Positions 2,846 through 61,671 of a DNA stretch of 61,671 bases are shown here, one piece after another. Under the pieces are notes generated by a model, which was not told the DNA's origin, did not search any database, and worked only from the letters and a program-made list of their open reading frames with translations. Origin of the DNA: Rickettsiales bacterium. Its GTDB lineage: Bacteria; Pseudomonadota; Alphaproteobacteria; Rickettsiales; JALZUV01. The stretch is from positions 1 to 61,671 of the forward strand of contig JALZUV010000044.1 in the NCBI GenBank assembly GCA_023301245.1, written 5' to 3'. Numbering within the stretch: position 1 is the first letter of the stretch; each line of letters begins with the position of its first letter. A program made the position numbers and the translations under genes.

Positions 2846-3454
2846 ATGGCCATTCGTAAGCGTAGACTACTTCGCAAGAAGCCTTTAAAGCGCGTCATAG
2901 AGGACATAGATATTCAAAGGGTACTAAGACCCCCTATCTATCGCAAGACGACAATACGCAGTGCACAATTCAGCGAGTGCTACAGATACCGTTATGGCTT
3001 GCTTGTCCAATGGGACGACTATAAGCCCATAATGGTATGGTGCATGCTGAACCCATCCACGGCAGACGAGGACAAGAACGACCCAACGATTGAGCGTTGC
3101 GAACGTCGTGCAAGGAAAGCGGGATACGGGGGGATATACATACTGAATATATTCGCCTTCCGTGCCACGGACCCGAAGGACATGAAGGTAGCCTCAGACC
3201 CCCAAGGGTACTATAACGACCTAACCATTGTCAGTGTTATACAAACCTACTGCGACCTAAACACCACGAAGCAAAACATAAACGTGCATTGTGGCTGGGG
3301 AACCCACGGGTCTTATCGCGGACGAGGAAAAGAAGTCTTGGGTATAATAAAGCAAATGGGGGCTATCCCCGTATGTCTTACACAAAATGCTAACGGGTCC
3401 CCTAAACATCCGCTATACTGCTCTTACGAATTAAACTTTAAACCCATGGAATAA
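2846..3454 (+). CDS. DUF1643 family protein
   Basis: RYRYGLLVQWDD...IMVWCMLNPSTADEDKNDPTIERCERRARKAGYGGIYILNIFAFRATDP is the characteristic DUF1643 (PF07799) core. The N-terminus MAIRKRRLLRKKPLKR is polybasic. Confidence 0.8.
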   Translation: MAIRKRRLLRKKPLKRVIEDIDIQRVLRPPIYRKTTIRSAQFSECYRYRYGLLVQWDDYKPIMVWCMLNPSTADEDKNDPTIERCERRARKAGYGGIYILNIFAFRATDPKDMKVASDPQGYYNDLTIVSVIQTYCDLNTTKQNINVHCGWGTHGSYRGRGKEVLGIIKQMGAIPVCLTQNANGSPKHPLYCSYELNFKPME

Positions 3455-3457
3455 CTT

Positions 3458-3733
3458 ATGACTGATACCTTATACGTCCCTGCTAGCGCTGTCTTCTACA
3501 AGGCAGAGGTAAACCCCCATATGTGGGAGAGCCTAGAGCTATCGGACTTTCTAAAATGGCGAGGGAAAGACGCCGAACTATATGTAGACGGTTCCAGCCA
3601 AGCTAAGTGCGCGTCGGGAGATACCCTATATATATTAACGGTCAGCTTACACAAACAAGTCCCCCCAACAATGTTTTACAGCCATGACTTATCTCTACTA
3701 AATGACGCTGTAAAAACGCTGGAAAAAGGCTAA
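3458..3733 (+). CDS. hypothetical protein
   Basis: 91-aa ORF, tightly packed. Confidence 0.5.
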   Translation: MTDTLYVPASAVFYKAEVNPHMWESLELSDFLKWRGKDAELYVDGSSQAKCASGDTLYILTVSLHKQVPPTMFYSHDLSLLNDAVKTLEKG

Positions 3734-3773
3734 CGACACGGGGGGTTTACACGCCGTCTTCTTTACCCTAATA

Positions 3774-3818
3774 AGGCCACATAGTAATTGACTAATAAGC
3801 CTCGGTAGTATGTGGCCT
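3774..3818 (+). promoter_or_regulatory. 10-bp inverted repeat AGGCCACATA-N25-TATGTGGCCT enclosing ATG 3810
   Basis: Arms at 3774-3783 and 3809-3818. Confidence 0.5.
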
Positions 3819-4226
3819 GTAATAACCTCACATGTAAAACTACTGGAAATTCTGATGTTTGATACACAATTTATTGGCGCAGCCGCCGTTGTCCTCTTCG
3901 CTTGGTTAGGTATGGAGATGCACATACCCGACAGCTTCCCGCTAGTGGCGGCGGCGACACTAGGCTCTTTATCCTCCGCTACGATACGAATACAAGAAGG
4001 TTATATAAAAGGGTTCTGGCCTACCCTACTAGCCTTCATTACTGGGCTAGCTTTTGGGTGGTTCGTGGGGAAGAACATAGGACCTCTAGTAGGATTTGAC
4101 GGAACTGCATTGGCACTGCCCATCTTCATAACAGCTACCTTTGGCGCAAAAGCAGTACATTACTTATCCACTAAATTTGACATAGCATCGGTTATAGATG
4201 GTATAGCTATCAGGCTTAAAAAATAG
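3810..4226 (+). CDS. multi-pass membrane protein (possible holin; start may be 3855)
   Basis: 3-4 hydrophobic helices (FIGAAAVVLFAWLGM, FPLVAAATLGSLS, FWPTLLAFITGLAFGWFVG, ALALPIFITATFGA). ATG 3810 is buried in a 10-bp inverted repeat. Confidence 0.5.
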   Translation: MWPVITSHVKLLEILMFDTQFIGAAAVVLFAWLGMEMHIPDSFPLVAAATLGSLSSATIRIQEGYIKGFWPTLLAFITGLAFGWFVGKNIGPLVGFDGTALALPIFITATFGAKAVHYLSTKFDIASVIDGIAIRLKK

Positions 4227-4237
4227 CAAACGTTTGC
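4226..4237. repeat. palindrome copy 3 (starts on last base of stop codon)
   Basis: Exact match. Confidence 0.95.
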
Positions 4238-4256
4238 TTAGTAACTTTTAAACTAC

Positions 4257-4285: not shown

Positions 4286-4308
4286 AGCTTATAAACTAAG
4301 GAACGAAT

Positions 4309-4931: not shown

Positions 4932-5321
4932 ATGGCCCTCAAGAAACTTAAGAAAAAAGGCCTCAAGAAAAAAGGCGGAAAAAAATCCAAAAAGGCAGCA
5001 CCTGATGCTACCTTCGCAAAAAAACGCGGCAAGTCCGCAAAATCAGACAAGTCACCAGCCCAGACGGAAAAGTCTAAAAAGTTCCACGAACTTATGACGG
5101 GAAAACCAGATAGCCCTAACGATACAGGACGCATGGGAAAGATGCTCGACAGAATGAAGCTCATTCGCAATCTGTCCAACTCAACCAATTATGACTTTAC
5201 GCCAGACGAAGCCGCACAAGTCGTAGCCGCCGTACGGGAACAAGCCGACTTACTCGAAGCTGACTTCGACCCAGATCAAAAGACCACTGTAATCGAGACC
5301 ACCACGTTCGCTTTCGACTAA
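4932..5321 (+). CDS. Lys-rich (histone H1-tail-like N-terminus) protein
   Basis: MALKKLKKKGLKKKGGKKSKKAAPDATFAKKRGKSAKSDKSPAQTEKSKK, followed by an acidic C-terminal half. Confidence 0.55.
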   Translation: MALKKLKKKGLKKKGGKKSKKAAPDATFAKKRGKSAKSDKSPAQTEKSKKFHELMTGKPDSPNDTGRMGKMLDRMKLIRNLSNSTNYDFTPDEAAQVVAAVREQADLLEADFDPDQKTTVIETTTFAFD

Positions 5322-5333: not shown

Positions 5334-5345
5334 TAAGGAACCCCC

Positions 5346-6848: not shown

Positions 6849-6854
6849 TAACTA

Positions 6855-6904: not shown

Positions 6905-7552
6905 ATGCCTATCAAAAAGCGCAAAGCGCAAGATCAAACTCTCATACACCCCATGCTTAGGCAGGGACGGAAAACAGCAATACTCTACAGGTATATCGCA
7001 GCCACAGGGGAAAAGGGCACCACGTCTTGGCACCTAAAGCAACAGCCTGTCTTTCACCCGCAGTTACTAGCCGACCTCATAAATGAGGGCCTTGTATCCA
7101 AGCACGACCAGCCACCTAGCGTAAGTCCGTACAAACTATATACCGCCAACAAACATGCTGAGAGCTTAACACAGCGTGTAGAGATACAGATACAGGTTGA
7201 GGTCTACGAAAACGAGAACGGAATGATAGGAGTACGCTGCTCACCTATGGACACCCTAACGAACATAGTAAGCGACGGCGCGCTGCATATTCACTCAAAA
7301 ACACTTAAGTTCAAATTGCCTCGCAGATGCGAGAGTGCAGGGACAAAAGTCTTCGGAAAAGTTAAGCTTGACGACGAGGCCGAATTGTTAGATGGTATAG
7401 TAATTATCAAATCATCTGGCGACTTTAAAGCGCCACAAGTTATCGAAGGCGTTGCGTCTAGGAAGGTAAAAAGTGAAGCTTTCAGTGTTCGGCATACGAA
7501 ACTTGAGGGGCCAGCCATACGGGGACTACTCACATACAGTCCAAGTAATTAA
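6905..7552 (+). CDS. hypothetical protein, possible winged-helix DNA-binding N-terminus
   Basis: Starts MPIKKRKAQ with a GGAG SD. RQGRKTAILYRYIAATGEKGTTSWHL...LINEGLV looks wHTH-like (weak). Confidence 0.45.
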   Translation: MPIKKRKAQDQTLIHPMLRQGRKTAILYRYIAATGEKGTTSWHLKQQPVFHPQLLADLINEGLVSKHDQPPSVSPYKLYTANKHAESLTQRVEIQIQVEVYENENGMIGVRCSPMDTLTNIVSDGALHIHSKTLKFKLPRRCESAGTKVFGKVKLDDEAELLDGIVIIKSSGDFKAPQVIEGVASRKVKSEAFSVRHTKLEGPAIRGLLTYSPSN

Positions 7553-7859: not shown

Positions 7860-9446
7860 ATGGCTCGTAAGAAAAAAGACCCGAAGAAGCTAACGCGGGG
7901 CGAAGTATACCGACCTAGACTACGTATAGTTATAGACCCGATATACGTACAGATCGCGAACCTTTCATCCAGTTCGACCTACCACAAATACGTTACGTTA
8001 GTACGAGAGCTAGCGGCGCGCGGGCATTTCATTTATTGGTCAGTACCCGATGCGGAATACGTACCCAATGAAGTAGAGAGTTTGCCGAACGTAGGTATTG
8101 TGCGGACTAGCAGCATTCAAGACCAGTTCGTAATCGACGGCGTACAAACCGACCAGTTCTTTAACCTATTCAACCGTACAGGGGGCAAGTTCCACGCGGA
8201 TGTCGTATGTACTTCTCGTAACAGTCTCGCCCTTACCTATAAGCGTCAACTTGACCCGCCGCGCTTCCATGACAACAAAGGCGAATACACCGACAAGTCC
8301 TATGGCATGCCCTTGGTACTTATCGAAGAGTTCCCGCAAACACCTGAGCGTCAACACACGGGGGAAGCCTATTGGTTATCCCAAGTCCTAGGATACTACG
8401 CAGCGGACAAGACCGTTTTCCTATCCGACCATAACCGTAGCGAAGTCGTCAAAGCCATGATGCCCTTCGTCACAAACAGCGTAGTACGGGACTTTACGGA
8501 ACGTGCCAAGGTCATACCCGCAGGTATAGAACGTGAAGAACTTGATAAGATATACAAGCCTAACCGCTGGAAGGTAGAAGACGGCTTCAACGTGCTATGC
8601 GTCGGGCGCATATTCGGGCCTTCCTACATTGAGTACCTAGAATGGTTTAACCACTTCTTTAAGATAGGTAATGAGGCCACACTGACGGTTTCCCTGTCTG
8701 GTAAGTTCTCTGGGCCAATGAAGAAAAAGCTGCGTAAGATAGGTTTCGATTACGACAACAACATCGGTAGGCAGTTCAAAATCATTGAGAACAATAACCG
8801 TAAGAACTTCCTAAAGATGCTGCAAAAGTATCAGGCCTTCGTATGCCCACTATCTCACTTGGACCACCCCACGGGGTTATTCGAGTGCATTTACCTTGGA
8901 CTTCCGGGAGTTATACCCGTTTCAGACTATCAACAAACGTTCTTCTCCGATTGGCCATGGGTTATAGACCCTCGCGATAAGGTCGGCCTCATAGCCATGC
9001 TTAAGGACATACAGGCGGACCCCCAAGCTGCTCGCGATAAAGTCCTCCCATGGCGGGAACGGATTGCGGACCTATACGACGCACCGACTAACATCAAAGT
9101 CCTAGCGGACGTTATCGAGAACGTAGCAAGAAAAAAATCAGACTATTTCCGCACGTCTCGCGGCGTCATCGACATCTGCAAAGAGATGAAGGGCAAAGAG
9201 TACGGCTGGGCGGACGCATTCGCCTATACCAAGACAGCTGGTACAATGGGCGTCAGCGTCGGGGACATGTCTATGCGGACAACCTTCACCTACGGGAGAG
9301 GGACCCTAAACCACGCCATGCACTGCGCGGGTTATGTAGACGACTGTAAAGGACCCATGGAAAACTTCGTTAGGGCAGATGTATTCGATGCCCGTCACGG
9401 CGGTAAGAAACGTCGCAAACGTTTGCGTAAGAGGAAATCAAAATGA
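7860..9446 (+). CDS. GT-B fold glycosyltransferase-like protein with polybasic termini
   Basis: N-terminal Rossmann-like half (VIDPIYVQIANLSSSS...LARGHFIYW). C-terminal half VLCVGRIFG...GLFECIYLGLPGVIP resembles the GT1/GT4 E-x7-E region. Ends HGGKKRRKRLRKRKSK. Confidence 0.45.
   Translation: MARKKKDPKKLTRGEVYRPRLRIVIDPIYVQIANLSSSSTYHKYVTLVRELAARGHFIYWSVPDAEYVPNEVESLPNVGIVRTSSIQDQFVIDGVQTDQFFNLFNRTGGKFHADVVCTSRNSLALTYKRQLDPPRFHDNKGEYTDKSYGMPLVLIEEFPQTPERQHTGEAYWLSQVLGYYAADKTVFLSDHNRSEVVKAMMPFVTNSVVRDFTERAKVIPAGIEREELDKIYKPNRWKVEDGFNVLCVGRIFGPSYIEYLEWFNHFFKIGNEATLTVSLSGKFSGPMKKKLRKIGFDYDNNIGRQFKIIENNNRKNFLKMLQKYQAFVCPLSHLDHPTGLFECIYLGLPGVIPVSDYQQTFFSDWPWVIDPRDKVGLIAMLKDIQADPQAARDKVLPWRERIADLYDAPTNIKVLADVIENVARKKSDYFRTSRGVIDICKEMKGKEYGWADAFAYTKTAGTMGVSVGDMSMRTTFTYGRGTLNHAMHCAGYVDDCKGPMENFVRADVFDARHGGKKRRKRLRKRKSK
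9415..9426. repeat. palindrome copy 6 (in CDS, 20 nt before stop; RKRL)
   Basis: Exact match. Confidence 0.95.
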
Positions 9447-10342
9447 AAAATAAAACAAGAAAACGCTTAGTCGGCGTAGGCAGCTCAGTAACCGAGGGCC
9501 TTACACGGTCTGAGAAAGTCGTGGTATTCTCTGTACCGATTAACTTGCTTGTTGCGCATAAGGCCAACCCCAACGAACAGAACGAGGCGACCTTCGACCA
9601 GCTCGTGCAGAAGATCGCAGAGGACGGACAAGACGAGCCTATCAACGTATTCCCCGAGATTTTAAAAGGGTCTCATACGGGCAAGTTTGTAATCTACTCA
9701 GGTCATCACCGTTTGAAAGCGTGTAAAGCCAACGGCTTCGAAACCGTCGAGTGTATTATCCGCGAAGGCTGGGACGACGATAAAGTAGCTATTGAGTTGG
9801 TAGCCCGTAACCAATTGCGAGGCGCACCTAACCCAGAGAAGTTCACAAAAATCTACAACGACCTTAAGAAGCGTCACGACCCTGAATTCCTTAAAGCTCA
9901 AATGGGCTTCAATAAGCGAGGGGATATAGACAAGCTCATTAAGAATGCAGGTGAGCATATGTCTGCTAAGGGTAAGGCCCGCCTAGCGGAAGCTAAGGAA
10001 GAGGTCACATCCGTAGAGGACTTGGGCAACATCATTAACCAAATCTTCCGAGAAGAGGGAGCCAAACTAGACCACGGACTTATCGTGTTCAGCTTCGGTA
10101 CAAAGAAGCATCTGTATATCAAATCCACAAAGGCATTGAAAACTGTCATGGATAGGCTTATGGATGACGCGGAAACTCACGGCGTAACAATGGAGGGTGC
10201 TCTACTGTCCGCTATACAACAGACACCTATCTCAGAGGCCGAGAAGGCTGGTAACTACACAAACGGAACTTCGAAAAATGGCAAAACGAAAAAGAAAGCT
10301 AAAGCTAAGACCAAAAAGAAAATCCGTAAGCGTATCACCTAG
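9443..10342 (+). CDS. ParB-like nuclease/partition-domain protein
   Basis: NPNEQNEATFDQLVQKIAEDGQDEPINVF...FVIYSGHHRLKACKANGFETVECII is the ParB/Srx N-terminal domain (GxxR box as GHHR). C-terminus KKKAKAKTKKKIRKRIT. Confidence 0.8.
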   Translation: MKNKTRKRLVGVGSSVTEGLTRSEKVVVFSVPINLLVAHKANPNEQNEATFDQLVQKIAEDGQDEPINVFPEILKGSHTGKFVIYSGHHRLKACKANGFETVECIIREGWDDDKVAIELVARNQLRGAPNPEKFTKIYNDLKKRHDPEFLKAQMGFNKRGDIDKLIKNAGEHMSAKGKARLAEAKEEVTSVEDLGNIINQIFREEGAKLDHGLIVFSFGTKKHLYIKSTKALKTVMDRLMDDAETHGVTMEGALLSAIQQTPISEAEKAGNYTNGTSKNGKTKKKAKAKTKKKIRKRIT

Positions 10343-10982
10343 TGCACCTACGAGAAACTTGTCAGCGTCTACGGACGCGGTGGAGGAAAGCCAAAGCCGA
10401 TTAGTCTCTAACCACCCACAGTTCCAGCTTATCCTGCAATCCATGAGAGAGGGCGTATCCAATGCAGAGATCGCTAGCTACTTGGCGACAGAGGGTCTTA
10501 TAACGCAGAGAGAGAAAACCTTTGCGTCCTACCTAGGTGCGTACAAGCGTAAGAACTTCTCATTCGTAACACAGGGCGTTAGTCGCGCGGATGCTTTGGC
10601 GAATAGGAACTTTGACGGCATCATAGGTAACAACGGACCCGAACTTGACGTAGAGCGGGAGCTAGAGAAGGTTGCCAAGTTCCAAAAGCGTCGCCTTGCT
10701 ATCGGGCATATCATAGAAGAGAGCACAGGTTTCGTTAACCAATCCCTACACAGAGACGTTAAAGAGATGCGGGAAACACTTACAGAGCTGGACAAAGTAC
10801 GCGGGGGCCAACGCGGTTCTGGGCGCAAGAAGTCTCAGCTAGAGGTAACAGCGGAAGCCTCTGAAAGCCTACGCGCTGTTGCGAAGTCAGAGACCACACA
10901 AGATAAGCTAACAAACCTAGCGGGGCAGCTACAGAGAAGCATAGGCAAGCGGGAACAAGAGGCACACGACGATGGCGCTTAA
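10278..10982 (+). CDS. terS: putative terminase small subunit (start uncertain)
   Basis: Lies immediately upstream of TerL and overlaps it. HTH-like MREGVSNAEIASYLATEGLITQREKTFASYL. Starts MAKRKRKLKLRPKRK. The ORF track begins at GTG 10197. Confidence 0.45.
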   Translation: MAKRKRKLKLRPKRKSVSVSPSAPTRNLSASTDAVEESQSRLVSNHPQFQLILQSMREGVSNAEIASYLATEGLITQREKTFASYLGAYKRKNFSFVTQGVSRADALANRNFDGIIGNNGPELDVERELEKVAKFQKRRLAIGHIIEESTGFVNQSLHRDVKEMRETLTELDKVRGGQRGSGRKKSQLEVTAEASESLRAVAKSETTQDKLTNLAGQLQRSIGKREQEAHDDGA

Positions 10983-13083
10983 ACTCGTAAAGAACAATCG
11001 GCCTGCCTTAGTAGCGACACCTCGCAAACGTTTGCTAAAGCCTAAACGCCGCAAGCTCATACGACCTACACCTAGGTTCGAACCTCGCGAAGACTTATCC
11101 GTAGACGAGCAAATCCACATACTGCTAGAGACAATCGTTGCCGAGGTATCGGAAATCGACGACCCAGAGCACGCGACTATGTGGTTGGATGCGTTAGAGA
11201 ACTTCCAGCGTTCGGGCGACGTAGAGGACCTTATGAAGGTCACCGAGTGGAAGCGTCCCGTCGTACCCCTCGAAGAGTTTATGTTCTCGTCTGCCTACCT
11301 TGGGCTACAGCAAAGCCAGATATACCCCTCCGTCGTAGAGACTGCTCACCACCTAGACGACGGCGACTATCGGGAAGCTGTATTCAAGGGGGCCTTGGGT
11401 ACGGGTAAGACCACGCTCGGCAACATTATGATGGCGCGGGACGTATACAAAATATCGTGTATGAGATCGCCGCAAACATCCTTTGGTATCCAAGCCAAAT
11501 CATCTATCGTATTCACCATCCAGTCCGTCCGCCTAGGTACAGCGAAAAAAGCCGTCTTTGACGAGCTGGGACACTATATGCGAAGTTCTCCGTACTTTAT
11601 GCAGAAGTATCCATATAACCCTAACGTCACGTCAGAGATGCGCTTCGAAAGCCAGAACGTCCGTATCATCCCTGTGTCATCATCCAATACAGCGGTTATC
11701 TCTATGAACGTCATCGGCGGACAACTGGACGAAATGAACTTCATGCAGAAGACGACAAACTCAAAGCATCAAAACGCAGATGACGCGGGTAAGTTCGACC
11801 AAGCCAAGGCCTTATACAACACACTGTCCCGTCGTAAGAAATCTCGTTTCGCGAATAAGGGTAAGTTGCCGGGAACCTTGTACTTGATTTCATCTTCTCG
11901 CTTCCCAGATGACTTTACCGAGCTTAAAGCCGCAGAGAGCACAATGATGGGCGGAGACGACCCAAGCATATACGTGTACTCACATAGCCAATGGTCTGCT
12001 AAGGGCCGAGATGCCTTTATGGACGAAGACTTTCAAATGCAGGTCGGTAACGACAGGTATCGTTCACGCGCTCTAGACGAAGACGAAGAGCCAGACATAG
12101 GGTGCGAAACCATACCCGTGCCTATGGACTTCCATTCGGAATTCGTAAAAGACCCAGACGGCTCGCTACGTGACTTCGCGGGCCTCACAACACTGTCTAC
12201 AAATCCCTTCTTTAACCAGCGCCACTTCATTGACCAATCCATGCGGGAAGCACAGAAGCACGGATACGAAAACCCATTCGCCATGGAGCAAGTGGATTTA
12301 ACTATCGGTCTGCCTACGCCTGACGCAACCAAGCTACGGACGGACGTACCAAGTGAGCGCCATTGCCATATTGACTTGGGGCTATCTCGCGATGCTTGTG
12401 GATTTGCCGTAGGGCATTTGGCAGGGCATAAAATCATACAGACGGTAGACCCTGTAACCAAGCAACGACGCTATGACATCAAACCTATAATCGCGTACGA
12501 TGTCATCATGCGTATCCTGCCGCCCCCTAACGGTGAGATACAGATATCCGATGTACGAAAGCTGCTAACAAATCTTAACGACTTGTACGGCCTCAACATA
12601 ACGTCGGTAACAACCGATGGCTTCCAATCAACAGACACGCGCCAGATACTAAAACGTCGCGGGTTCAAGACGGGCTACCAATCAGTAGAGAAAGTCGAGC
12701 CTTGGCGCTCATTCAGGGAGGCCCTATATGATGGCCGCATCCTCATGTCCCCTAACCAGCATGCGAAGAAAGAGCTGGTCGAGCTTGAGACCTCAATAAA
12801 GAACAACAAAGAAAAGGTAGATCACAGCCCGAACGGTACGAAAGACGTTGCCGACGCTATTGTAGGTGTAGCCAATCATATCTTAAGACAAAAGGTTTCA
12901 TGGAACCCTTCGGTTATTGACGGAGGAACTTCTGGTACATTCTTGCTAGGTACTCTATCCGAAGAGGAACTATCGGAAATGAAAGAGAACGAAACCGACG
13001 ATGGTAACCGACGTATTAACCGACGCCCACGGCCAAAAAGAAAGCGGGCTATCCGACGTAAGCGGGTATCAAGGAAAGCTTAA
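10972..13083 (+). CDS. terL: terminase large subunit
   Basis: Walker A FKGALGTGKTTLG, Walker B IGGQLDEMNF, and a C-terminal RNase-H-like nuclease region (HIDLGLSRDACGFAVGH...TTDGFQS...DHSPNGTKDVADA). Polybasic N- and C-terminal extensions. Confidence 0.85.
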   Translation: MALKLVKNNRPALVATPRKRLLKPKRRKLIRPTPRFEPREDLSVDEQIHILLETIVAEVSEIDDPEHATMWLDALENFQRSGDVEDLMKVTEWKRPVVPLEEFMFSSAYLGLQQSQIYPSVVETAHHLDDGDYREAVFKGALGTGKTTLGNIMMARDVYKISCMRSPQTSFGIQAKSSIVFTIQSVRLGTAKKAVFDELGHYMRSSPYFMQKYPYNPNVTSEMRFESQNVRIIPVSSSNTAVISMNVIGGQLDEMNFMQKTTNSKHQNADDAGKFDQAKALYNTLSRRKKSRFANKGKLPGTLYLISSSRFPDDFTELKAAESTMMGGDDPSIYVYSHSQWSAKGRDAFMDEDFQMQVGNDRYRSRALDEDEEPDIGCETIPVPMDFHSEFVKDPDGSLRDFAGLTTLSTNPFFNQRHFIDQSMREAQKHGYENPFAMEQVDLTIGLPTPDATKLRTDVPSERHCHIDLGLSRDACGFAVGHLAGHKIIQTVDPVTKQRRYDIKPIIAYDVIMRILPPPNGEIQISDVRKLLTNLNDLYGLNITSVTTDGFQSTDTRQILKRRGFKTGYQSVEKVEPWRSFREALYDGRILMSPNQHAKKELVELETSIKNNKEKVDHSPNGTKDVADAIVGVANHILRQKVSWNPSVIDGGTSGTFLLGTLSEEELSEMKENETDDGNRRINRRPRPKRKRAIRRKRVSRKA
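11024..11035. repeat. palindrome copy 7 (TerL codons ~18-22; RKRL)
   Basis: Exact match. Confidence 0.95.
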
Positions 13084-22052: not shown

Positions 22053-22268
22053 ATGACTGATAAGACCAAAACCAAAATTCGTAAGCGGGGCGGCATAAGT
22101 GATACTGCCGAGACCGTAACTAAGCCAGCAAATATCGACACATCTGGCACGAAGACCACAGTCGATAAAACAAGTAAGCCTACAGAAGCACCAAAACCCA
22201 AGCCCGTACCTAGGGGCGTCGGGGGCAGCTACGTAATCAACTCAAACGGTGATCGGGTTAAGGCCTAA
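22053..22268 (+). CDS. small hypothetical protein
   Basis: 71 aa with a GGAGAC SD. Confidence 0.45.
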   Translation: MTDKTKTKIRKRGGISDTAETVTKPANIDTSGTKTTVDKTSKPTEAPKPKPVPRGVGGSYVINSNGDRVKA

Positions 22269-53170: not shown

Positions 53171-55938
53171 TGACAAAACGTAAAGTAAAAAAAGATAAGC
53201 GCGGTTCCAAGAAAATGCCTGAGGGTGTTTTGTGGTTCGGGGACTTGAACGCTAATACAGTATTCGTAGTGGATACCATCGTAGGGCGGGAAGAGGACGG
53301 CGACGAAGCACCTAAGACAACCAAACCCCTCAGTAAAGCGAACTTGTCTTTCTTCTCGCGCTTCCTAAAAGAGGCCAAGATTAAAAAGTCGGACCTCGCC
53401 ATCGTGTGTTGCGCACCGCCTGTAACTGCGGACATGTGGCAACGGGGCAAAGCCATGGGGGACCATCTCAAAGCTCATAGAGCCGCATTCGTAGAAGCCA
53501 TAGAGCTAATAGACCCCAAGCTTATCGTACCCATGGGAAAGTACCCAGCCACGCAAGTCGCGGGACGTTCAGTTGCCATCACCAAAGTACGGGGACTACC
53601 AACACACAACGAAGCGTGGAACCGCGTTGTCATGCCAGCCTTCGGCGTTAACCACGTCCGACGTATCCCAGACAATGAAGCCCTATTCCGTAACGACATG
53701 TTGACCGTGGGAAATCTCGTATCGACAAACTACAGCATCGACTACGAAGAAGAGATCGAAACGGATTACAGGTATTGCACGGACATCAGCTTCTTACTGA
53801 AAAACCCACCCAAGGACCTATGCGTAGATTGCGAGTGGACGGGGGGTGAATGGTTCCAGCCCAAGTCAAAACTCCTAACGGTACAGCTCACATGGGAAGA
53901 AGGGAAAGCCGTCTCCATACCTATCAACTACCCACGCTACGAACGGGAAGTACAGAAGCTTACCAAGAAAGATAAAGCCCGTATCAAGGCACAGCTCAAA
54001 AAACTGCTAGAGAACAAAAAGGTTCGAGTGTTCGGGCATAACTACAAGGCCGATTATTTATACCTACTAGGCAAGCTAGGTATAGACACCGCCACATTCT
54101 CAGACGACACAATGCTCATGGTGCATATGCACGACGAGAACATGCTCTCCAAATCTTTGACAGATTGCATACGACGTTTCGTGCCAGCCATGTCGGGCTA
54201 CTCTGATGACTTTGACCGAGACCCTATCCATCAAGGTAAATCCCGTATGGACCTCGTGGACCCACAAGACATGATGATGTACGGCTGTGGCGATACGGAT
54301 GCGACCTTCCGACTGTGGGCGCACATGCGGGCCTTGCTTAAAAAGGACAAGAACCTCTACCGCTGCTATAAGCGTGTAAAGATGCCAGCCACCCGCTCGT
54401 TCTGTAAGATTGAACAATCAGGCTTCGACGTTAGCAAACGTTTGCTAAGTACATTCGAGACGAAAATTAGGAAGCATCAAAACGCAGAATATGCGCGTCT
54501 AGTCGCCATGGTTCCTTCTCACATACGTAAGGAATACCTAGAAGACAGCGGCAACCCCTCTATCACTCGTGGGGCCTTCCTTATCAGGTTCCTATTCGGT
54601 AAAAAGAGCACGGGGGGCCTAGGATTTAAGCCACGCGTATTCACTAAGTCTACCAAGATGCTCAAAGATAAAAACATGCGCGTGCCGTCTACATCAACTA
54701 AAGACCACTTCCCGTACTTTCTAGGGGAGCACCCTTTCATCGAAGGCATTATTGACTTCGTTAAGAACGAGAAAATGCTAGGCACGTACGTCGGCAGTGA
54801 GAGGGACAATACAGGCTTCTACAAATACATCTTTGACGATAAAATTAGACCTTCCTACCTCCTGCATCGCACAGTCACGGGCCGTACAGCGTCCGCTAAT
54901 CCGAACGGGCAGAACTTCCCTAAACGCGGCATGTTCGCAAAAGATTATCGCAAAATCTTTATTGCGCCACGCGGCTATTGTCTAGTCGAGGTCGATTACT
55001 CACAAGTAGAACTACGTATCGCGGCCATGATGGCAAACGAACCGACCATGCTGGAAATCTATGCAAGGAACGGGGACATTCATGCGGCAACCGCTGCGAA
55101 AACCATGGGCGTAACCCTCGAAGAGTTTATGAAGCTGCCGAAGAAAGAGCGGGGCTTCAAACGGTTCCAAGCCAAGGCGATTAACTTCGGCTTCCTATAC
55201 GGCATGTGGTGGAAATCATTTATTGTGTACGCCAAGACGGACTACGGTATCGACTTCACGGAAGAGGAAGCACAGAAAATCCGTAATGACTTCTTCGACC
55301 TCTATAAGAACCTAGAGCCATGGCATGCGGCGGTTAAAGACTTCGTGAACACCAATGGTTACGTTAAATCTTATGACGGCGGTATCCGTCACTTGCCTAA
55401 CATCTTCTCGCCAGAGCAAAGCATCGCTAAGATGGCCGAGCGCCAAGCGGTTAACTCGCCTGTCCAAGCCCAAGCGTCTAACCTTGGCCTAATAGCCATG
55501 GCCCGCATACAGCGCTATGTCGACCCTGAGCTTGTGGACATCAAAGGGTTCATCCATGATGCGCTTATCTGCCTCGTACCCGAGGACAGAGCCATAGAAG
55601 CTATCCTTGAGATCAAAAAGCAAATGGAGAACTTGCCCCTCAAAGAGATGTTCGGATGGCAACCAAGTATCCCACTTATGGCGGAAGCAGAAATCGGCAA
55701 GAACCTTTCCCAAATGGTCGAGGTCGAGCATAGCTGGTACAAGGACAAGAACATCAAAAGCTATCAGGACATACTCATAGCCGAGTGGAAAGCTGAGTGC
55801 GACGAAGCTAAGGCCGAGGGTAAGCGACCACCTCGTATGCCTAAGGTATTAGTGGACGGATATAAGCACCCAGAACCCGAACGGACTGTTAAGCCGAAAC
55901 AAGTAAAACGAAGGAAAAGGAAGCTCGTTCTCGCTTGA
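53170..55938 (+). CDS. polA: family A DNA polymerase with N-terminal UDG-like domain and 3'-5' exonuclease
   Basis: Exo I VDCEWTG, Exo II HNYKADYLYL, Exo III YGCGDTDATFRL. Pol motif A LVEVDYSQVELRIAA, motif B RFQAKAINFGFLYGM, motif C GFIHDALI. The first ~190 aa are family-4 UDG-like. Confidence 0.95.
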   Translation: MTKRKVKKDKRGSKKMPEGVLWFGDLNANTVFVVDTIVGREEDGDEAPKTTKPLSKANLSFFSRFLKEAKIKKSDLAIVCCAPPVTADMWQRGKAMGDHLKAHRAAFVEAIELIDPKLIVPMGKYPATQVAGRSVAITKVRGLPTHNEAWNRVVMPAFGVNHVRRIPDNEALFRNDMLTVGNLVSTNYSIDYEEEIETDYRYCTDISFLLKNPPKDLCVDCEWTGGEWFQPKSKLLTVQLTWEEGKAVSIPINYPRYEREVQKLTKKDKARIKAQLKKLLENKKVRVFGHNYKADYLYLLGKLGIDTATFSDDTMLMVHMHDENMLSKSLTDCIRRFVPAMSGYSDDFDRDPIHQGKSRMDLVDPQDMMMYGCGDTDATFRLWAHMRALLKKDKNLYRCYKRVKMPATRSFCKIEQSGFDVSKRLLSTFETKIRKHQNAEYARLVAMVPSHIRKEYLEDSGNPSITRGAFLIRFLFGKKSTGGLGFKPRVFTKSTKMLKDKNMRVPSTSTKDHFPYFLGEHPFIEGIIDFVKNEKMLGTYVGSERDNTGFYKYIFDDKIRPSYLLHRTVTGRTASANPNGQNFPKRGMFAKDYRKIFIAPRGYCLVEVDYSQVELRIAAMMANEPTMLEIYARNGDIHAATAAKTMGVTLEEFMKLPKKERGFKRFQAKAINFGFLYGMWWKSFIVYAKTDYGIDFTEEEAQKIRNDFFDLYKNLEPWHAAVKDFVNTNGYVKSYDGGIRHLPNIFSPEQSIAKMAERQAVNSPVQAQASNLGLIAMARIQRYVDPELVDIKGFIHDALICLVPEDRAIEAILEIKKQMENLPLKEMFGWQPSIPLMAEAEIGKNLSQMVEVEHSWYKDKNIKSYQDILIAEWKAECDEAKAEGKRPPRMPKVLVDGYKHPEPERTVKPKQVKRRKRKLVLA
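54434..54445. repeat. palindrome copy 24 (PolA; SKRLL)
   Basis: Exact match; 18-bp palindrome TTAGCAAACGTTTGCTAA. Confidence 0.95.
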
Positions 55939-55987: not shown

Positions 55988-56605
55988 ATGGCTATCAAAA
56001 AGCGCAAACCTAAAAAGAAAATTCAGGGCATAGCTGCCCTAAGGGATAAGCATGCCGAGGGTACTATCCATCGCGTAGTGGTTGAACTCGACGAATTCAA
56101 ACGACTTGACGTTATCGGCAAAGAACACAGCAACGCCGCGTCCCGACAAGGCACAGCGTTAAAAAAAGCGTACAAGGCCCTCGCCAAATCCGAAGAGCTA
56201 AAACCTACGGACGAAGTTTACATCGACGGCAAGGCTTGGCGTATGGGCGTAACGGAGGGGGAAGTCATCGACGTCCACGCCCTCTACCAACTCCTGCTAG
56301 ACGAAGAGATTACGGAAGAGAAATTCCTAGCCTGCATTTCTGCTACCAAGACTGACGTTAAGCGAGAAATCGGCGCTGACTACACGATAACCCTAACCAA
56401 GGAAGTAAAAGGCAATACGGTTGACGTACGAAAACGCAACCTAACTCAGGACGAGATTGCTCAGCACGAAGACGTGACTATTGTCCGTAAACACGTCGAG
56501 AAGAAAAAAGCCAAGAAACCCAGAACGGCCAAACAATCTACCCCACACGAGAAGGCAAAGCGGCTGGCGGGCAACCGAACCCGCCACCGTTTAGTTAAAA
56601 ACTAA
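55988..56605 (+). CDS. hypothetical protein with polybasic N- and C-termini
   Basis: MAIKKRKPKKK... at the N-terminus and ...EKKKAKKPRTAKQ...NRTRHRLVKN at the C-terminus. Confidence 0.5.
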   Translation: MAIKKRKPKKKIQGIAALRDKHAEGTIHRVVVELDEFKRLDVIGKEHSNAASRQGTALKKAYKALAKSEELKPTDEVYIDGKAWRMGVTEGEVIDVHALYQLLLDEEITEEKFLACISATKTDVKREIGADYTITLTKEVKGNTVDVRKRNLTQDEIAQHEDVTIVRKHVEKKKAKKPRTAKQSTPHEKAKRLAGNRTRHRLVKN

Positions 56606-58291: not shown

Positions 58292-59188
58292 ATGGCCATT
58301 AAGAAACGCCCATCGTCTAAAGCCGCTCTAAAGAGCAAATCGTCCAAGCGAAAAAAGCCTAAGGTCGAAGAAGAGGACGTAAAGTCCAAAAAGAAAAAGC
58401 CCAAAAAGTCCAAGGACAAATCAGCGAAGTCCCGCAAGGACAGTAAATCCCCAAAGCGTTCGCGCGGCTCCAAAGACAGCCCATTCGGCGGCGCTCGTAA
58501 AGAGAAAGCCCGCAGAGATAAAGAGCGAGAAACACGCAACAACAAACCGTTCGACTTCTACATAAAGGACGGAGAAAAAGCCAAGTATTACATCCTCGAC
58601 GATGGCGAGCCTTACACAGGGTACGAACATAGTCGGTATAATCCGAACCTACGCAAAGGTGCACGTCAGCAAGACCCAGTACCTTGTATCAAGGAGCGGG
58701 ATATCTGCCCCGCTTGTGAAGCGGACGGTAAAGAGGGTTACTGGTTCATGGCGGTTACTGTCGTTGTCGTATCTGCCACGGGCATGGATAGTAAATACAA
58801 ATACCGCAAAAAGCTTATGAAGATTAAGTCCGGCTCGGCCCCCAAGTTCGAACGCTTGTATGCCAAGAAAGGAAGCTTCCGTGGTATGATGCTAGAGGTC
58901 GCGCGTGACGGTGATAAGTCACCGAGTATCGGCAACGACATCGACTTCGTGGAATTCCTCTCCGAAGCTAAGATGAAAAAGCTTGCAGCCAAATACAACG
59001 TTAAGGACAAAAAGGGCAACGTTGTATCGGACATCACAAAAGCTACTGATTACAAGAAAGCTTTCCCTAAGCTTTCCCGTAAGGAACTTGAAAAACTTTA
59101 TGGCCGTACAAGCGGCGGAGCTTTGGGTGAAGAGGACTTCGGCGACGACGAAGACGACGACGATTACGCCCTCGACCTTGACGATTAA
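58292..59188 (+). CDS. putative ssDNA-binding protein (gp32-like layout) with ~85-aa polybasic N-terminal extension and acidic C-tail
   Basis: FYIKDGEKAKYYIL...YEHSRY...PCIKERDICPACEADGKEGYWFMAVTVVVV resembles the T4 gp32 His/Cys3 Zn region. The tail EEDFGDDEDDDDYALDLDD is typical of phage SSBs. Confidence 0.45.
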   Translation: MAIKKRPSSKAALKSKSSKRKKPKVEEEDVKSKKKKPKKSKDKSAKSRKDSKSPKRSRGSKDSPFGGARKEKARRDKERETRNNKPFDFYIKDGEKAKYYILDDGEPYTGYEHSRYNPNLRKGARQQDPVPCIKERDICPACEADGKEGYWFMAVTVVVVSATGMDSKYKYRKKLMKIKSGSAPKFERLYAKKGSFRGMMLEVARDGDKSPSIGNDIDFVEFLSEAKMKKLAAKYNVKDKKGNVVSDITKATDYKKAFPKLSRKELEKLYGRTSGGALGEEDFGDDEDDDDYALDLDD

Positions 59189-59194
59189 CGTGCA

Positions 59195-60829
59195 GTGAAG
59201 CCGTCAATACAATACCACCCGACGAAGCGGGGCAGGTTGCCTATAGTTAGCTCTATGGTCTACCTGCCTTGTAGTCATGTCCGTAACATCCCCGAGCTTA
59301 TAAAATACCTAACGGTAGAGTATAACCCAAACGTGGACGGACAGGACGGGGAGCCTGAGTATATCCGACTGTATGACCTCCAAACACACAAAGGCTATAT
59401 AGGCTTGCCTAGAGCTTTCGCTACAGAGCAGCTTAGCAAACGTTTGCTTCATTACATGGACCACACGATTAAGCCCACAAAGAAATTCAAATACCCTGCC
59501 AAGATTACGCCACGCGATAAGCAACAGGCGGAATTCATGGAAGACCTGCAACGGGCTTGCACCGAGCATAAACTAGGTGCCGTGGACTTTAGCGCTAAAG
59601 CCAAGACGGGCGCGGGTAAAACAGTCTCACTACTCAAAACGATAGCTGACATGGGCATAGGCCCCGTTCTATTCCTCGTGCATATCAACAGCCTTAAACG
59701 ACAATGGGTTGGGGACGTTAAAAAGAAAAATGGTATCAAGTATTTTTTCGGTAAAAAGTGGACCAAGAAAAACGTAGGTATCGTACAGCAAGACATTTGT
59801 GATTATAAAGGAAAAAGCTTGGTAGTCGGTATGCTACCATCTATAGCGAGAAGAGATTATGGCGAAGATTTTTACAATAACTTTACTGCTGTGTTTTGGG
59901 ATGAATTACACAAATCCGCAGCCCCTATGCTATCTAAGACGCTATCAATGTTCCCAGCGGCAATACGCGGCGGTGTTACGGCTACACCGAGAGAGGGCGC
60001 TTTATCGCGGGTCACAAATACCCACCTAGGCTCTGTATCTATAATCTCCGAACAGGACGTAATGTCGCCTAAGGTTATCCGTGTACGCCTAAAGCCGTCA
60101 GAGCCTACGAAGCTCAACACCTTCAACAAGTATACGATAATAACATCCCTCACACGCTGGGACGCCCGACAAAAGCTACTCACCAAGATCATAAAGAAAC
60201 ATGGATACGATAATGGCCGACAGGTTCTAGCCTTATCTGATAGGACAGCCCAGCTAGCGGATATTCGACGCAGGCTTATTGCGCAGGGCGTACCACAAAG
60301 CGAGATAGGTCTATACGTGGGGTCCTATGATACGGGAAACTATATCGTCAGACGGCGGGGACCAGACAGTAGCCGTCACATAAAGGTTAAAGACGAAAGC
60401 TTCACAAGCAAGTACAAGGCCCAAAAGTATATAAAAGCACAAGACGACGATGCCGATTATATTATAGACAACGAAATACACTCTCCGAGCATTAAAGAGC
60501 TTGAACGTATATCTAAAAGATGCTCTATAGTTTTGGCCACCTATGGCATATTCGATACAGGCGTCGATATACCTAGACTGGACATGGGGGTAGAATGCAG
60601 CCCCCGTGGAAACGTAACGCAAGCGCTTGGACGGGTCCTACGCCTGCTAAAAGGAAAGGATACACCTACTTGGTGGACTATAGACGACGTTCTACATACT
60701 CTGGACGACAAAGGTGCCGTAGAGTGGTTCGAACAGTTTATACAAGCCAGTAATGCACGTACGAGGTCTTATACAGAGCAGAAAGCTGAAATCTCTCGTA
60801 CTTCGGTGAAAATAAAGAACAATGACTAA
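59195..60829 (+). CDS. superfamily 2 (DEAD/DEAH-like) helicase
   Basis: Motif I AKTGAGKT, motif II WDELH, motif III VTATP, motif V ATYGIFDTGVDIP, motif VI QALGRVLR. GTG start (uncertain). Confidence 0.8.
   Translation: MKPSIQYHPTKRGRLPIVSSMVYLPCSHVRNIPELIKYLTVEYNPNVDGQDGEPEYIRLYDLQTHKGYIGLPRAFATEQLSKRLLHYMDHTIKPTKKFKYPAKITPRDKQQAEFMEDLQRACTEHKLGAVDFSAKAKTGAGKTVSLLKTIADMGIGPVLFLVHINSLKRQWVGDVKKKNGIKYFFGKKWTKKNVGIVQQDICDYKGKSLVVGMLPSIARRDYGEDFYNNFTAVFWDELHKSAAPMLSKTLSMFPAAIRGGVTATPREGALSRVTNTHLGSVSIISEQDVMSPKVIRVRLKPSEPTKLNTFNKYTIITSLTRWDARQKLLTKIIKKHGYDNGRQVLALSDRTAQLADIRRRLIAQGVPQSEIGLYVGSYDTGNYIVRRRGPDSSRHIKVKDESFTSKYKAQKYIKAQDDDADYIIDNEIHSPSIKELERISKRCSIVLATYGIFDTGVDIPRLDMGVECSPRGNVTQALGRVLRLLKGKDTPTWWTIDDVLHTLDDKGAVEWFEQFIQASNARTRSYTEQKAEISRTSVKIKNND
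59436..59447. repeat. palindrome copy 26 (SF2 helicase; SKRLL)
   Basis: Exact match. Confidence 0.95.
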
Positions 60830-61247
60830 ACGGAAACTTAAACTTCGCAAACGTTTGCAAAGCACTGAGAAGCGGCCTAAGCAACGTAAATCACTTTCTA
60901 TCGACCCCCTGTCTAACAAGCACCGTATAAAGGACATCGCAGTCTCACGGCTCGTAACCCTGCCCAGCGGCAAGGAACGCAATCTACTGACGTTTAGTAA
61001 GAACGAACTCGCGGAACTCATGGACACGTCCTATATGAGTATAGATCGCTGGGTTGCTAAGGGCCAAATACCTGCCCCCGTTCTAGTTTGCGGAAAGAAG
61101 ACTTATTGGTGTATAAACGAAGCCCTAGCCATTCTCGAACCTGTCGGGAAGCACTTGCGCACCTCCTCCTATTATACTACAAACGATATAAGCGTTCGGG
61201 ACAGTATATCTCGGCGCGTATCAACAGTAAGAGCCACTACTCATTAG
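60822..61247 (+). CDS. putative DNA-binding protein (AlpA/excisionase-type HTH)
   Basis: ELMDTSYMSIDRWVAKGQIPAPVLVCGKKTYWCINEALAIL resembles MerR/AlpA-type HTH_17. N-terminus MTKRKLKLRKRLQSTEKRPKQRK. Confidence 0.45.
   Translation: MTKRKLKLRKRLQSTEKRPKQRKSLSIDPLSNKHRIKDIAVSRLVTLPSGKERNLLTFSKNELAELMDTSYMSIDRWVAKGQIPAPVLVCGKKTYWCINEALAILEPVGKHLRTSSYYTTNDISVRDSISRRVSTVRATTH
60847..60858. repeat. palindrome copy 27 (25 nt into HTH gene; RKRLQ)
   Basis: Exact match. Confidence 0.95.
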
Positions 61248-61258
61248 GAGACTACCAC

Positions 61259-61671
61259 ATGGCACGTAAACCCGCCAAGACTACTGCTGCGTCTAAAAAG
61301 ACTAGCAAAGTAAAAGCCGCAGAAACCCAAATTACGGTTTTCGAAAGCACAGGTTCCCGTAGCGAAACTATCGAAATCCATCAGTTCGCTACCGAGCCTG
61401 CCAAAGTCCATCTTTACAACAGCCTGACCAAATCTGACGGCGCGTATCAAGGCGGCAAGTACGGGGTATCGGTAACCATCCCTTGCTACGTCGAGGAGAT
61501 GGACCAAGCCATGGAAGATGCCCATGCGCTAATGGACCGCTATATGGCCAACGCTGGCGAAGCCTTTAATGCCCTCGCCTCCACGGAACTCGCTGACACC
61601 ATCGGTGACGAAGTCGAAGAGGACGAAGCCGAAGAGGACGAAGCCGAAGAGGACGAAGCCGAAGAGGACGA
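61259..61671 (+). CDS. hypothetical protein with acidic repeat tail, truncated by window end
   Basis: AGGAG SD and ATG at 61259. Open to the last base. Ends in (EEDEA)n encoded by a 15-bp tandem repeat. Confidence 0.5.
   Translation, partial: MARKPAKTTAASKKTSKVKAAETQITVFESTGSRSETIEIHQFATEPAKVHLYNSLTKSDGAYQGGKYGVSVTIPCYVEEMDQAMEDAHALMDRYMANAGEAFNALASTELADTIGDEVEEDEAEEDEAEEDEAEED
61616..61671 (+). repeat. 15-bp tandem repeat GAAGAGGACGAAGCC x3.7, cut by window end
   Basis: Units at 61616, 61631 and 61646, plus a partial unit at 61661. The same 15-mer occurs at 17710-17724. Confidence 0.9.

Follow-up and report, generated by a model that had tools for sequence, protein, structure and literature searches.

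Lysine- and arginine-rich ends on unrelated proteins of a siphovirus lineage related to Rhodobacter phage cluster RcF

Contig JALZUV010000044.1 (assembly GCA_023301245.1) is a 61,671-nt stretch of DNA, analysed here over its whole length and referred to as the window, which carries the genes of a siphovirus. We find that about a quarter of its proteins, functionally unrelated and including both terminase subunits, the portal and the DNA polymerase, begin or end with a dense cluster of lysine and arginine (K/R) residues. These K/R-rich ends, which we call tails, are genuine and enriched well beyond chance. Comparison with other phages indicates that the tails are a heritable trait of one siphovirus lineage related to Rhodobacter cluster RcF, with the window genome at the trait's extreme. 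We tentatively suggest, with a little less than even confidence, that they act as non-specific electrostatic tethers to a polyanion, most probably double-stranded DNA.

Our curated set comprises 68 genes on the + strand, each candidate start having been inspected for a Shine-Dalgarno (SD) motif or for coupling to the preceding stop codon. An end was scored as tailed when a 10-residue segment lying no more than 25 residues from it held at least five (or, more strictly, at least six) K/R, and within-protein shuffles (1000 trials) served as the control. At five or more per 10, 15 N-termini and 11 C-termini qualify, that is, 26 termini on 21 proteins, against 6.4 proteins in the shuffles (maximum 13). 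The stricter threshold retains 11 N-termini and 9 C-termini (20 in total), where 0.73 are expected per end (maximum 5). K and R together make up 18–19% of the first or last 20 residues but 10.6% of protein interiors, and the terminal 30-mers contain 31 matches to K[KR]x[KR], on 17 proteins, versus 6.1 expected (maximum 15). A net charge of at least +7 is found in the first 30 residues of 16.7% of the window's proteins, and in the last 30 residues of the same fraction; in a pool of lambdoid prophage proteins the corresponding values are 0.4% and 3.3%. This charge comparison had been proposed in a preliminary description of the DNA, which quoted K/R-rich peptides from individual genes and put the number of proteins at two dozen or more. 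Every quoted peptide is present in the gene named for it; the count is slightly generous, since 17–21 proteins are tailed, at 26 termini.

The tails are not artefacts of annotation, which is ruled out by the SD motifs or coupling ahead of the K/R-rich starts, by the independence of the C-tails from start calls and by conservation in relatives. Nearly all K/R-rich N-termini have AGGA, GGAG or GAGG at 5–9 nt or overlap an upstream stop. Re-examination left the starts sound in general, but it did remove one apparent N-tail, at 51188, which is lost with the better start at 51329. The start of the putative small terminase (TerS) at 10278 has a weak SD motif, and the N-tail that follows overlaps the C-tail of the ParB-like protein in another frame. 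The near relative in metagenomes, L017 (ENA ERZ23496873), has the same in-frame, K/R-rich extension (MAKKLRRLKRKSK...) that runs into conserved protein sequence; because L017 keeps this extension, we regard the long form of TerS as real. The overlapping tails of the ParB-like protein and TerS occupy the same 65 nt (10278–10342) in two frames, each of them K/R-rich, and the overlap in L017 is 95 nt (7897–7991). In the public (ENA) annotation, L017 TerS is missing about 56 codons at its start.

The tails and related N-terminal motifs of the window are as follows, with L-numbers denoting related loci and D/E standing for aspartate and glutamate.

2846–2893, + strand: N-tail of the DUF1643 protein (gene 2846–3454), MAIRKRRLLRKKPLKR, 9 K/R and 0 D/E, starting M-[AP]-I-[KR]-K-R; the DUF1643 domain starts at residue 49
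4932–4994, + strand: N-tail of a 129-residue protein, MALKKLKKKGLKKKGGKKSKK, 12 K/R, with the SD motif GGAG at 7 nt
6905–6925, + strand: N-terminal motif MPIKKRK of a 215-residue protein, 4 K/R and so under the tail threshold, with the same hexapeptide motif; MPIKKR is kept in L017 with synonymous changes
7860–7925, + strand: N-tail of the GT-like protein, MARKKKDPKKLTRGEVYRPRLR
9393–9443, + strand: C-tail of the GT-like protein, RHGGKKRRKRLRKRKSK, 12 K/R, holding a DNA palindrome at 9415 and the SD motif of the next gene
9443–9466, + strand: N-tail of the ParB-like protein, MKNKTRKR
10274–10339, + strand: C-tail of the ParB-like protein, KNGKTKKKAKAKTKKKIRKRIT, 13 K/R, sharing DNA with the TerS N-tail, which lies in another frame; every orthologue examined is basic here
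10278–10322, + strand: N-tail of the putative small terminase, MAKRKRKLKLRPKRK, 10 K/R, its long form kept in L017; basic in all orthologues examined
10972–11076, + strand: N-tail of the large terminase (TerL), residues 1–35, 13 K/R and 0 D/E, with a palindrome at 11024; predicted coil, pLDDT 45–50
13009–13080, + strand: C-tail of the large terminase, RRINRRPRPKRKRAIRRKRVSRKA, 15 K/R; predicted coil, pLDDT 46–56
13147–13167, + strand: N-terminal motif MPIRKRL of a 212-residue protein
13717–13782, + strand: C-tail of the same 212-residue protein, KGYQGKGKLKAKPKLRKRLRKS, 11 K/R, with a palindrome at 13763
14281–14301, + strand: N-terminal motif MPIKKRH of a 138-residue protein, whose family keeps M-A-I-[RK]-[KR]-R across the lineage
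14766–14858, + strand: N-tail of the portal, residues 1–31, 14 K/R and 0 D/E, basic in most orthologues; the Pfam match of the portal starts at residue 118
20112–20159, + strand: C-tail of a 127-residue head-module protein, RAKKNKPSSSRIKKRR; the C-end of gp34 in Rhodobacter phage RcDurkin is basic too
21535–21585, + strand: weak N-tail, MVKSIVPLLEKKTKRQR, 5 K/R per 10
22053–22088, + strand: N-tail of a 71-residue protein, MTDKTKTKIRKR
23831–23881, + strand: weak N-tail, MVIHVPNGPPKRTQKRK, 5 K/R per 10
41975–42064, + strand: weak C-tail of a 136-residue protein, ...KDKAKKKGQVGNKQSSAAPSSSKKA
47050–47115, + strand: C-tail of a Cdc48-like AAA+ ATPase, KPKVKTAGRKRRLSPKRNTSSN, basic in RcDurkin, L103 and L105 and weaker in L116 (4 K/R per 10)
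47722–47763, + strand: C-tail of a second 212-residue protein, KTIVKRRGRRTIRK; the C-end of RcDurkin gp61 is SRRSRVVVRRGRKITI
50497–50529, + strand: C-tail of the replication-protein-O-like initiator, RLPPRRNRRRI
51130–51279, + strand: K/R-rich C-terminal region of a 207-residue protein, 19 K/R mixed with 8 D/E, less clean than the others
53170–53214, + strand: N-tail of the family A DNA polymerase (PolA), MTKRKVKKDKRGSKK; pLDDT below 50 at residues 1–11
55882–55935, + strand: C-tail of PolA, RTVKPKQVKRRKRKLVLA; pLDDT below 50 at residues 895–922
55988–56020, + strand: N-tail of a 205-residue protein, MAIKKRKPKKK; its C-end NRTRHRLVKN is weakly basic
58292–58474, + strand: long N-terminal K/R/S-rich region of the 'SSB-like' protein, residues 1–61 or further, 28 K/R, starting MAIKKR
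60822–60890, + strand: N-tail of a 141-residue protein, MTKRKLKLRKRLQSTEKRPKQRK, 12 K/R, with a palindrome at 60847; the protein has a weak excisionase-type helix-turn-helix match at residues 59–92

That the tails lie outside the recognisable cores, as had been claimed from the start, is borne out by homology and by structure prediction. Homology of TerL to cultured phages covers residues 37–645 of 703. In its AlphaFold2 model (63 homologues), a confident core is flanked by coil at residues 1–35 and 674–703, where the predicted confidence (pLDDT) is about 45–56. The PolA model (46 homologues) has a mean pLDDT of 91.9 and likewise ends in coil, with values below 50 at residues 1–11 and 895–922, so the structure-prediction check suggested earlier gives low-confidence ends beside confident cores in both proteins. 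Distant PolA homologues (27–30% identity) stop at a conserved ...HWGE and lack a tail. Relative to the whole proteome, the tails are enriched in K (3.9-fold), R (2.7-fold) and P (1.45-fold), and depleted in F (0.17-fold), W (0.30-fold), Y (0.30-fold) and M (0.20-fold). The K/R-rich ends are predicted to be intrinsically disordered. Their composition fits K/R/P-rich, nucleic-acid-binding, low-complexity tails and does not fit amphipathic membrane anchors; in a survey of such regions, K-rich ones were associated with non-specific DNA binding (PMC6821194). Sec or Tat signal peptides can be set aside, given that polar or charged residues follow the basic stretch (e.g., MAIRKRRLLRKKPLKRVIEDIDIQ) and that hydrophobic and aromatic residues are depleted. 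The same goes for polybasic amphipathic anchors of the MinD/FtsA type, since F, W, Y and M are depleted and the TerL and PolA tails are predicted to be coil, not helix.

Comparison with L017 argues that selection acts on the protein. Over 30 codons of the GT-like N-tail, the two genomes differ by 12 synonymous and no nonsynonymous changes; for the TerL C-tail the numbers are 7 and 4. K/R numbers hold up where a tail has drifted in sequence and length: the C-tails of the ParB-like proteins are 38% identical, with 13 K/R in the window and 17 in L017, and the tails of the 4932 protein are 42% identical, with 13 K/R in the window and 15 in L017. With synonymous changes building up under a peptide, or at least a charge, that stays the same, these comparisons show the tails to be maintained by protein-level selection, which acts chiefly on charge and partly on short motifs. 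One such motif is the hexapeptide M-[AP]-I-[KR]-K-R, which opens six unrelated proteins (genes 2846, 6905, 13147, 14281, 55988 and 58292). Among these genes its codons differ at every third position, which rules out a DNA-level repeat or mobile cassette as its source. Across all three forward frames, the motif matches only at predicted starts. Without the Met, the motif occurs nine times in the proteome, six of them at position 2, where 0.03 are expected. Proteins that start with the hexapeptide are also encoded by 15 of 509 open reading frames (ORFs) in lineage relatives, compared with 0 of 905 lambdoid ORFs and 0 of 306 ORFs of other phages.

All credible genes of the window lie on the + strand; GC content is close to 0.50, and the coding strand has more A than T. 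From left to right, early genes are followed by genes for the GT-like protein, the ParB-like protein, TerS, TerL, then the portal, protease, scaffold-like and capsid proteins. Tail genes (including those for proteins of 1497 and 3135 residues) come next, then lysis genes, and at the right end are genes for the AAA+ ATPase, the replication-O-like initiator, a helicase, the family A polymerase, a primase and a second helicase. The same gene order is found in Rhodobacter phage RcDurkin, a cluster RcF siphovirus that packages its DNA by the P1-type headful mechanism (PMC8601537). The TerL of the window is 50% identical to that of RcF phages and 48% identical to that of Agrobacterium phage JP1, and the hosts of the cultured relatives in this comparison are Rhodobacter, Agrobacterium and Rhizobium. 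Megablast against GenBank phages returned no close relative at the DNA level. L017, by comparison, has a TerL 87% identical to that of the window and shows full synteny with it. A scan of GTDB genomes gave only six matches, five at 29–32% identity and one short fragment at 42%, and assigned no host.

To compare genomes, we used one automatic gene caller throughout, which reproduces the curated result for the window, and counted proteins with at least six K/R per 10 at either end. The control genomes among those below are few and their ORFs come from a simple caller, which agreed with deposited annotation where the two were compared.

This window: 17 of 71 proteins tailed
L017: 8 of 32
L103: 7 of 24
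L002: 6 of 33
L015: 6 of 32
L014: 5 of 27
More distant lineage members: 0–2 each; at 5 per 10 the excess is modest
Lambdoid prophage pool: 11 of 1165 ORFs (about 15 expected)
RcSimone-Hastad, annotated genes: 0 of 63, and 1 of 63 at 5 or more per 10

In the deposited annotation of RcDurkin, 14 of 64 proteins are tailed at five or more per 10, where 3.6 would be expected; six or more per 10 are reached by 1 of 64. Its orthologues of the GT-like protein, ParB, TerS, TerL, portal and AAA+ proteins, among others, have basic ends. RcSimone-Hastad, an unrelated siphovirus that encodes a polymerase and a helicase of its own, infects the same host species as RcDurkin. These figures make the trait lineage-specific, neither universal nor imposed by the host; a host-driven origin is ruled out because RcDurkin is tailed and RcSimone-Hastad is not. 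The lambdoid pool and lambda itself rule out a general feature of compact phage genomes or a bias toward N-terminal lysine.

Across the lineage, basic ends are found at the N-terminus of TerS, both termini of the ParB-like protein, the N-terminus of the portal and the C-termini of the GT-like protein, the AAA+ ATPase and the 55988 family. Nearly all of 120 TerL homologues (44–87% identity) have a basic C-tail and many also have a basic N-extension, the latter with the motif GF[RK]-hydrophobic-LPKP. In the C-tails of 63 aligned homologues, the arginines R690 and R696 never vary, and R685 and R701 are almost invariant. PolA homologues of at least 40% identity (about 50) have basic C-tails that often end in ...[KR]x[KR][KR]AA; such tails are absent from homologues of 39% identity or less, that of Rhizobium phage RHph_I4 included, and from cellular Pol I. 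The GT-like N-tail MARKKKDPKK is confined to the window and L017, and is a recent gain, because more distant orthologues lack it. The statement that such tails are abnormal for phage homologues is thus right for lambdoids, for the more distant PolA proteins and for RcSimone-Hastad, but not within the lineage, where equivalent tails are common on TerL and PolA and in RcDurkin. Homologues in ordinary phages, which had been named as a possible refutation, carry equivalent tails inside the lineage and not outside it.

What might the tails do? They are concentrated in particular modules of the genome: of the 27 genes in the modification/packaging and replication modules, 14 encode a protein with a tail of six or more K/R per 10, compared with 1 of 24 in the head/tail/lysis module (Fisher p = 1.7e-4). 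The carriers are mostly non-structural, and the protein at the capsid position (18694–19698) has 3 and 1 K/R per 10 at its two ends; its assignment as capsid comes from a weak Phage_capsid match in L017 and from the RcDurkin annotation. A common tether to a polyanion, one of the possibilities raised in the preliminary description, is the most economical reading. The disordered polybasic ends would bind phage DNA non-specifically by charge, and tethering would raise the local concentration on phage DNA of the proteins that modify, replicate, recognise and package the genome. The set so tethered would comprise the GT-like, ParB-like, TerS, TerL, portal, initiator, PolA and DUF1643 proteins. We infer both that DNA is the ligand and that tethering is of benefit, and hold the proposal as a whole with somewhat less than even confidence.

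Several considerations weigh against tethering to DNA. By sequence, the ligand could equally be DNA, RNA, polyphosphate or a poly-acidic protein of the phage itself. The bias toward DNA handling rests on genome module, not on proven activity, and several carriers are without known function. In addition, some DNA enzymes have no tails, namely helicase 59255, primase 57098 and protein 51848. The invariant R690 and R696, the N-terminal hexapeptide and the TerL motif GF[RK]-hydrophobic-LPKP look motif-specific, which may suggest protein partners, and a DNA tether on the Cdc48-like ATPase would have no obvious rationale.

Tails of a similar kind are well known on single proteins. Like the ends described here, the C-terminal tail of histone H1, the extensions of actinobacterial HU and the C-tails of Ku are terminal, disordered and rich in K, R, P, A and S, and keep their charge while sequence drifts. 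Tails of this type bind DNA non-specifically (PMC6821194). The phage ends share its marks, being terminal, K/R/P-rich, poor in aromatics and predicted to be disordered, and their orthologues likewise hold charge as sequence drifts. Unlike H1, HU and Ku, which are individual cellular proteins, the ends found here are usually shorter (10–35 residues), contain more Arg, extend across a viral proteome and include a fixed N-terminal hexapeptide. The phi29 terminal protein has a basic N-terminal domain that reportedly gives nucleoid association and non-specific DNA binding and scores as a nuclear localisation signal (NLS). The window likewise has basic regions that match NLS patterns on phage replication proteins. 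In phi29, however, this concerns one protein and protein-primed replication, whereas in the window short tails sit at either end of 20 or more unrelated proteins, terminase, portal and PolA among them; no terminal-protein gene was recognised in the window. Small icosahedral viruses offer another comparison: their capsid proteins have arginine-rich arms, which are terminal, disordered and positive, and which bind and neutralise the genome; in a survey of these arms, tailed phages fell into a group of their own (PMC7096446). Unlike those viruses, which lack packaging motors, the phage has a major capsid protein without an arm and mostly non-structural carriers. A literature search found no description of proteome-wide terminal K/R tails in a phage, and none of the systems compared here has a proteome-wide set in a tailed phage.

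The main rival to a DNA tether is that the tails dock onto poly-acidic proteins of the phage, for electrostatic assembly or recruitment, and this we consider unlikely. Strong acidic tracts are present in the scaffold-like protein, the portal, the primase and protein 58292, all of them candidate partners; the possible counter-charge elements in two of them are these:

17662–17862, + strand: 67-residue poly-Glu/Asp tract, residues 181–247 of the scaffold-like protein 17122–18609
59126–59185, + strand: acidic C-end GALGEEDFGDDEDDDDYALDLDD of protein 58292–59188, whose sequence ends EEDFGDDEDDDDYALDLDD

The tract of the scaffold-like protein is nearly pure Glu/Asp, the protein has a net charge of −45, and orthologues in relatives have shorter acidic tracts. 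Loci in which a larger share of the ORFs is K/R-tailed have scaffold orthologues of higher acid density (Spearman 0.73, n = 11, p = 0.01), although this correlation is small and the loci are not phylogenetically independent. Docking could take the form of procapsid loading, as with the capsid-targeting sequence of T4. The hexapeptide, always at the start of its six unrelated proteins, does resemble a portable targeting leader, and the T4 sequence is similarly a short N-terminal peptide common to unrelated proteins; the portal and several head-module proteins are tailed as well. Yet the T4 leader is not polybasic, directs its carriers to the scaffold core and is cut by the prohead protease, and most carriers here are replication or packaging proteins. 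Terminase subunits, an initiator and a polymerase are not expected within capsids, and the major capsid protein and the protease have no tails. Alternatively, docking could couple the replisome. In T7, the acidic C-tails of gp2.5 and gp4 bind basic patches on gp5, and a comparable charge complementarity involving a disordered tail might exist between the acidic C-tail of 58292 and the basic tails of PolA. Polarity would be partly reversed, however, since the basic element is a folded patch in T7 and a disordered tail here, and the trait extends well past the replisome.

Further readings involve a DNA element of the window. The 12-bp palindrome GCAAACGTTTGC occurs in 27 exact copies from 1011 to 60847 (1011, 2196, 4226, 5322, 6855, 9415, 11024, 13763, 16466, 18246, 20068, 24044, 27208 and 30638 as sites 1–14; 34671, 37275, 39681, 42320, 42989, 43587, 45328, 48260, 52089, 54434, 56996, 59436 and 60847 as sites 15–27), with a one-mismatch copy at 49707. 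Its extended form, (C)TT[CA]GCAAACGTTTGC[GT]AA(G), spans 16–20 bp and sits in intergenic DNA and in all three reading frames. The same palindrome is common to relatives L001 and L015–L019, and a different one with the same CAA-N4-TTG frame, CAATCGATTG, is found in RcDurkin (20 copies in 50 kb), L103 and L105. Fifteen of the 27 copies lie 13–96 nt upstream of a gene start, at variable spacing, where 2.9 are expected. A dimeric DNA-binding protein, co-evolving with the palindrome, probably recognises it.

Could the tails sort their carriers into a phage-made compartment? The boldest version of this idea treats the ends and the hexapeptide as a portable address tag that partitions about a quarter of the proteome of a siphovirus of ordinary size into a phage-made polyanionic phase, either phage DNA marked by the dispersed palindromes and the ParB-like protein or the poly-Glu scaffold, thereby forming, in bacteria, a membrane-less factory for replication and packaging in which the Cdc48-like ATPase might remodel tagged proteins; this we regard as a long shot. 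A narrower version, in which the tails sort proteins into a membrane-less compartment such as a DNA-rich condensate that the ParB-like protein, or some other DNA binder of the phage, nucleates on the palindromes, also seems improbable to us. Multivalent polybasic disordered regions and a polyanion are the standard ingredients of complex coacervates, and the number and extended form of the palindromes, their persistence or replacement by CAATCGATTG in relatives and the location of the ParB-like gene within the packaging module are all compatible with a condensate. On the other hand, we found nothing in the window that is akin to the known compartment systems of phages, the ParB_N match is under the Pfam cut-off (24.1 versus 26.3 bits), and the position of so many palindromes just ahead of gene starts looks more like gene regulation. 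The sorting signal into a compartment or condensate that had been raised at the outset thus found no supporting evidence in our analysis of the window.

A different possibility is that the tails are by-products of constraints on nucleic acid at gene boundaries, such as the palindrome, SD motifs and A-rich spacers, A-rich 5′ coding sequence or translation enhancers of the MSKIK type; we give it little chance of being right. Some tails are indeed shaped by such elements. The palindrome, which can encode RKRL, lies inside 5 of the 26 tails, and 5 of the 11 C-tails adjoin the ribosome-binding site of the next gene and owe part of their K/R to read-through of palindrome and SD motif, as in the C-tail of the GT-like protein, where the two encode KRLRKRKSK. 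The AAA codon accounts for 34% of K/R codons in terminal regions and for 25% in interiors, and a common piece of DNA yields the ParB-like C-tail and the TerS N-tail in two frames. But the palindrome explains only part of the signal, as had been recognised early on: with five tails of 26, it is ruled out as the driver, and RKRL is encoded by non-palindromic codons too. The remaining six C-tails end 49–130 nt before the next start. Lambdoid genomes, equally compact, have no terminal K/R excess; the tails are basic in relatives of 55–59% GC too, by way of R codons; and peptides are kept where synonymous sites diverge. MSKIK-type tags do increase translation (PMC10192921), but screened translation-enhancing peptides favour hydrophilic residues and Asp rather than K/R (PMC12551147), which makes the SKIK-type enhancer a weak analogy and leads us to reject it. 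Moreover, tails of 15–60 residues reach far past any effect on initiation.

It is also conceivable, though the prospect is slim, that the tails are initiation or recognition tags for an AAA+ unfoldase, either the phage Cdc48-like ATPase or host ClpX, serving timed remodelling or turnover. ClpX recognition signals sit at protein termini, and the C-terminus of MuA, RRKKAI, is a known basic ClpX tag. The phage itself encodes an ATPase (45400–47118) that is conserved in the lineage, namely in RcDurkin (gp60), L103, L105 and L116. Its single AAA domain (about residues 270–500), which resembles the D2 domain of Cdc48/p97/VAT (E = 3e-64), follows an uncharacterised N-terminal region of 270 residues; a Cdc48-like unfoldase is unusual in a siphovirus. 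Many C-ends follow a basic-basic-hydrophobic-x-A or AA pattern, and RKRKLVLA, RKRVSRKA and the ...KAA of many PolA homologues fit the MuA motif loosely, but RKRKSK and RIKKRR do not, and the extreme C-terminal residues vary widely. Unfolding a quarter of the proteome would bring no obvious benefit, and the ATPase is itself tailed. Finally, true NLSs, or a mark of a eukaryote-associated host or environment, are extremely improbable: phage terminal proteins can score as functional NLSs, and the 31 terminal K[KR]x[KR] matches bear out the earlier remark that the classical pattern is present, but any polybasic composition yields this pattern automatically, no nuclear role is conceivable for terminase or portal, and importin-type import is without basis because the ribosome-binding sites, like the gene organisation, are bacterial and the cultured relatives infect Alphaproteobacteria (Rhodobacter, Agrobacterium, Rhizobium).

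Other features of the genome are recorded here for completeness. The labels 'GT-like' and 'SSB-like' are unverified, as neither protein has a match in Pfam, PHROG, NCBIfam or PDB; for the former, the RcDurkin orthologue is the only one annotated as a glycosyltransferase. Between TerL and portal, two adjacent small proteins (13785–14291 and 14281–14697) have a common Cys-rich C-terminal motif, ...C-x-CPL[FW]-x-[FL]RMG-x-N..., and several paralogues of this family occupy the same position in relatives, including gp28 and gp29 of RcDurkin. Residues 44–141 of the family A polymerase (53170–55938) form an N-terminal uracil-DNA-glycosylase-like domain, with a weak Pfam match to uracil-DNA glycosylase; JGI names its homologues 'uracil-DNA glycosylase family 4', and the DUF1643 protein at 2846–3454 is separate. 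Many TerL and PolA homologues in the lineage (P0009, P0057, P0092, P0159, P0164 and the 1046-residue gp25 of RcDurkin) are 300–400 residues longer than the window copies. These longer forms carry intein/homing-endonuclease domains (PF14528, PF14890, PF13392, PF07591); the window copies are intein-free.

In one phage lineage, then, tails have been put on terminase, portal, polymerase, initiator, ParB-like and many uncharacterised proteins together. Homology searches ignore such tails, so the trait is invisible in standard pipelines, and gene callers truncate K/R-rich starts, as in the ENA call for L017 TerS. RcDurkin and its relatives can be cultured, which makes the function of the tails testable. 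If the tails do tether or sort proteins to phage DNA, they would offer a ready-made DNA-targeting tag for proteins in Alphaproteobacteria, and they would give a small phage a simple, genetically portable means of organising replication and packaging in space.

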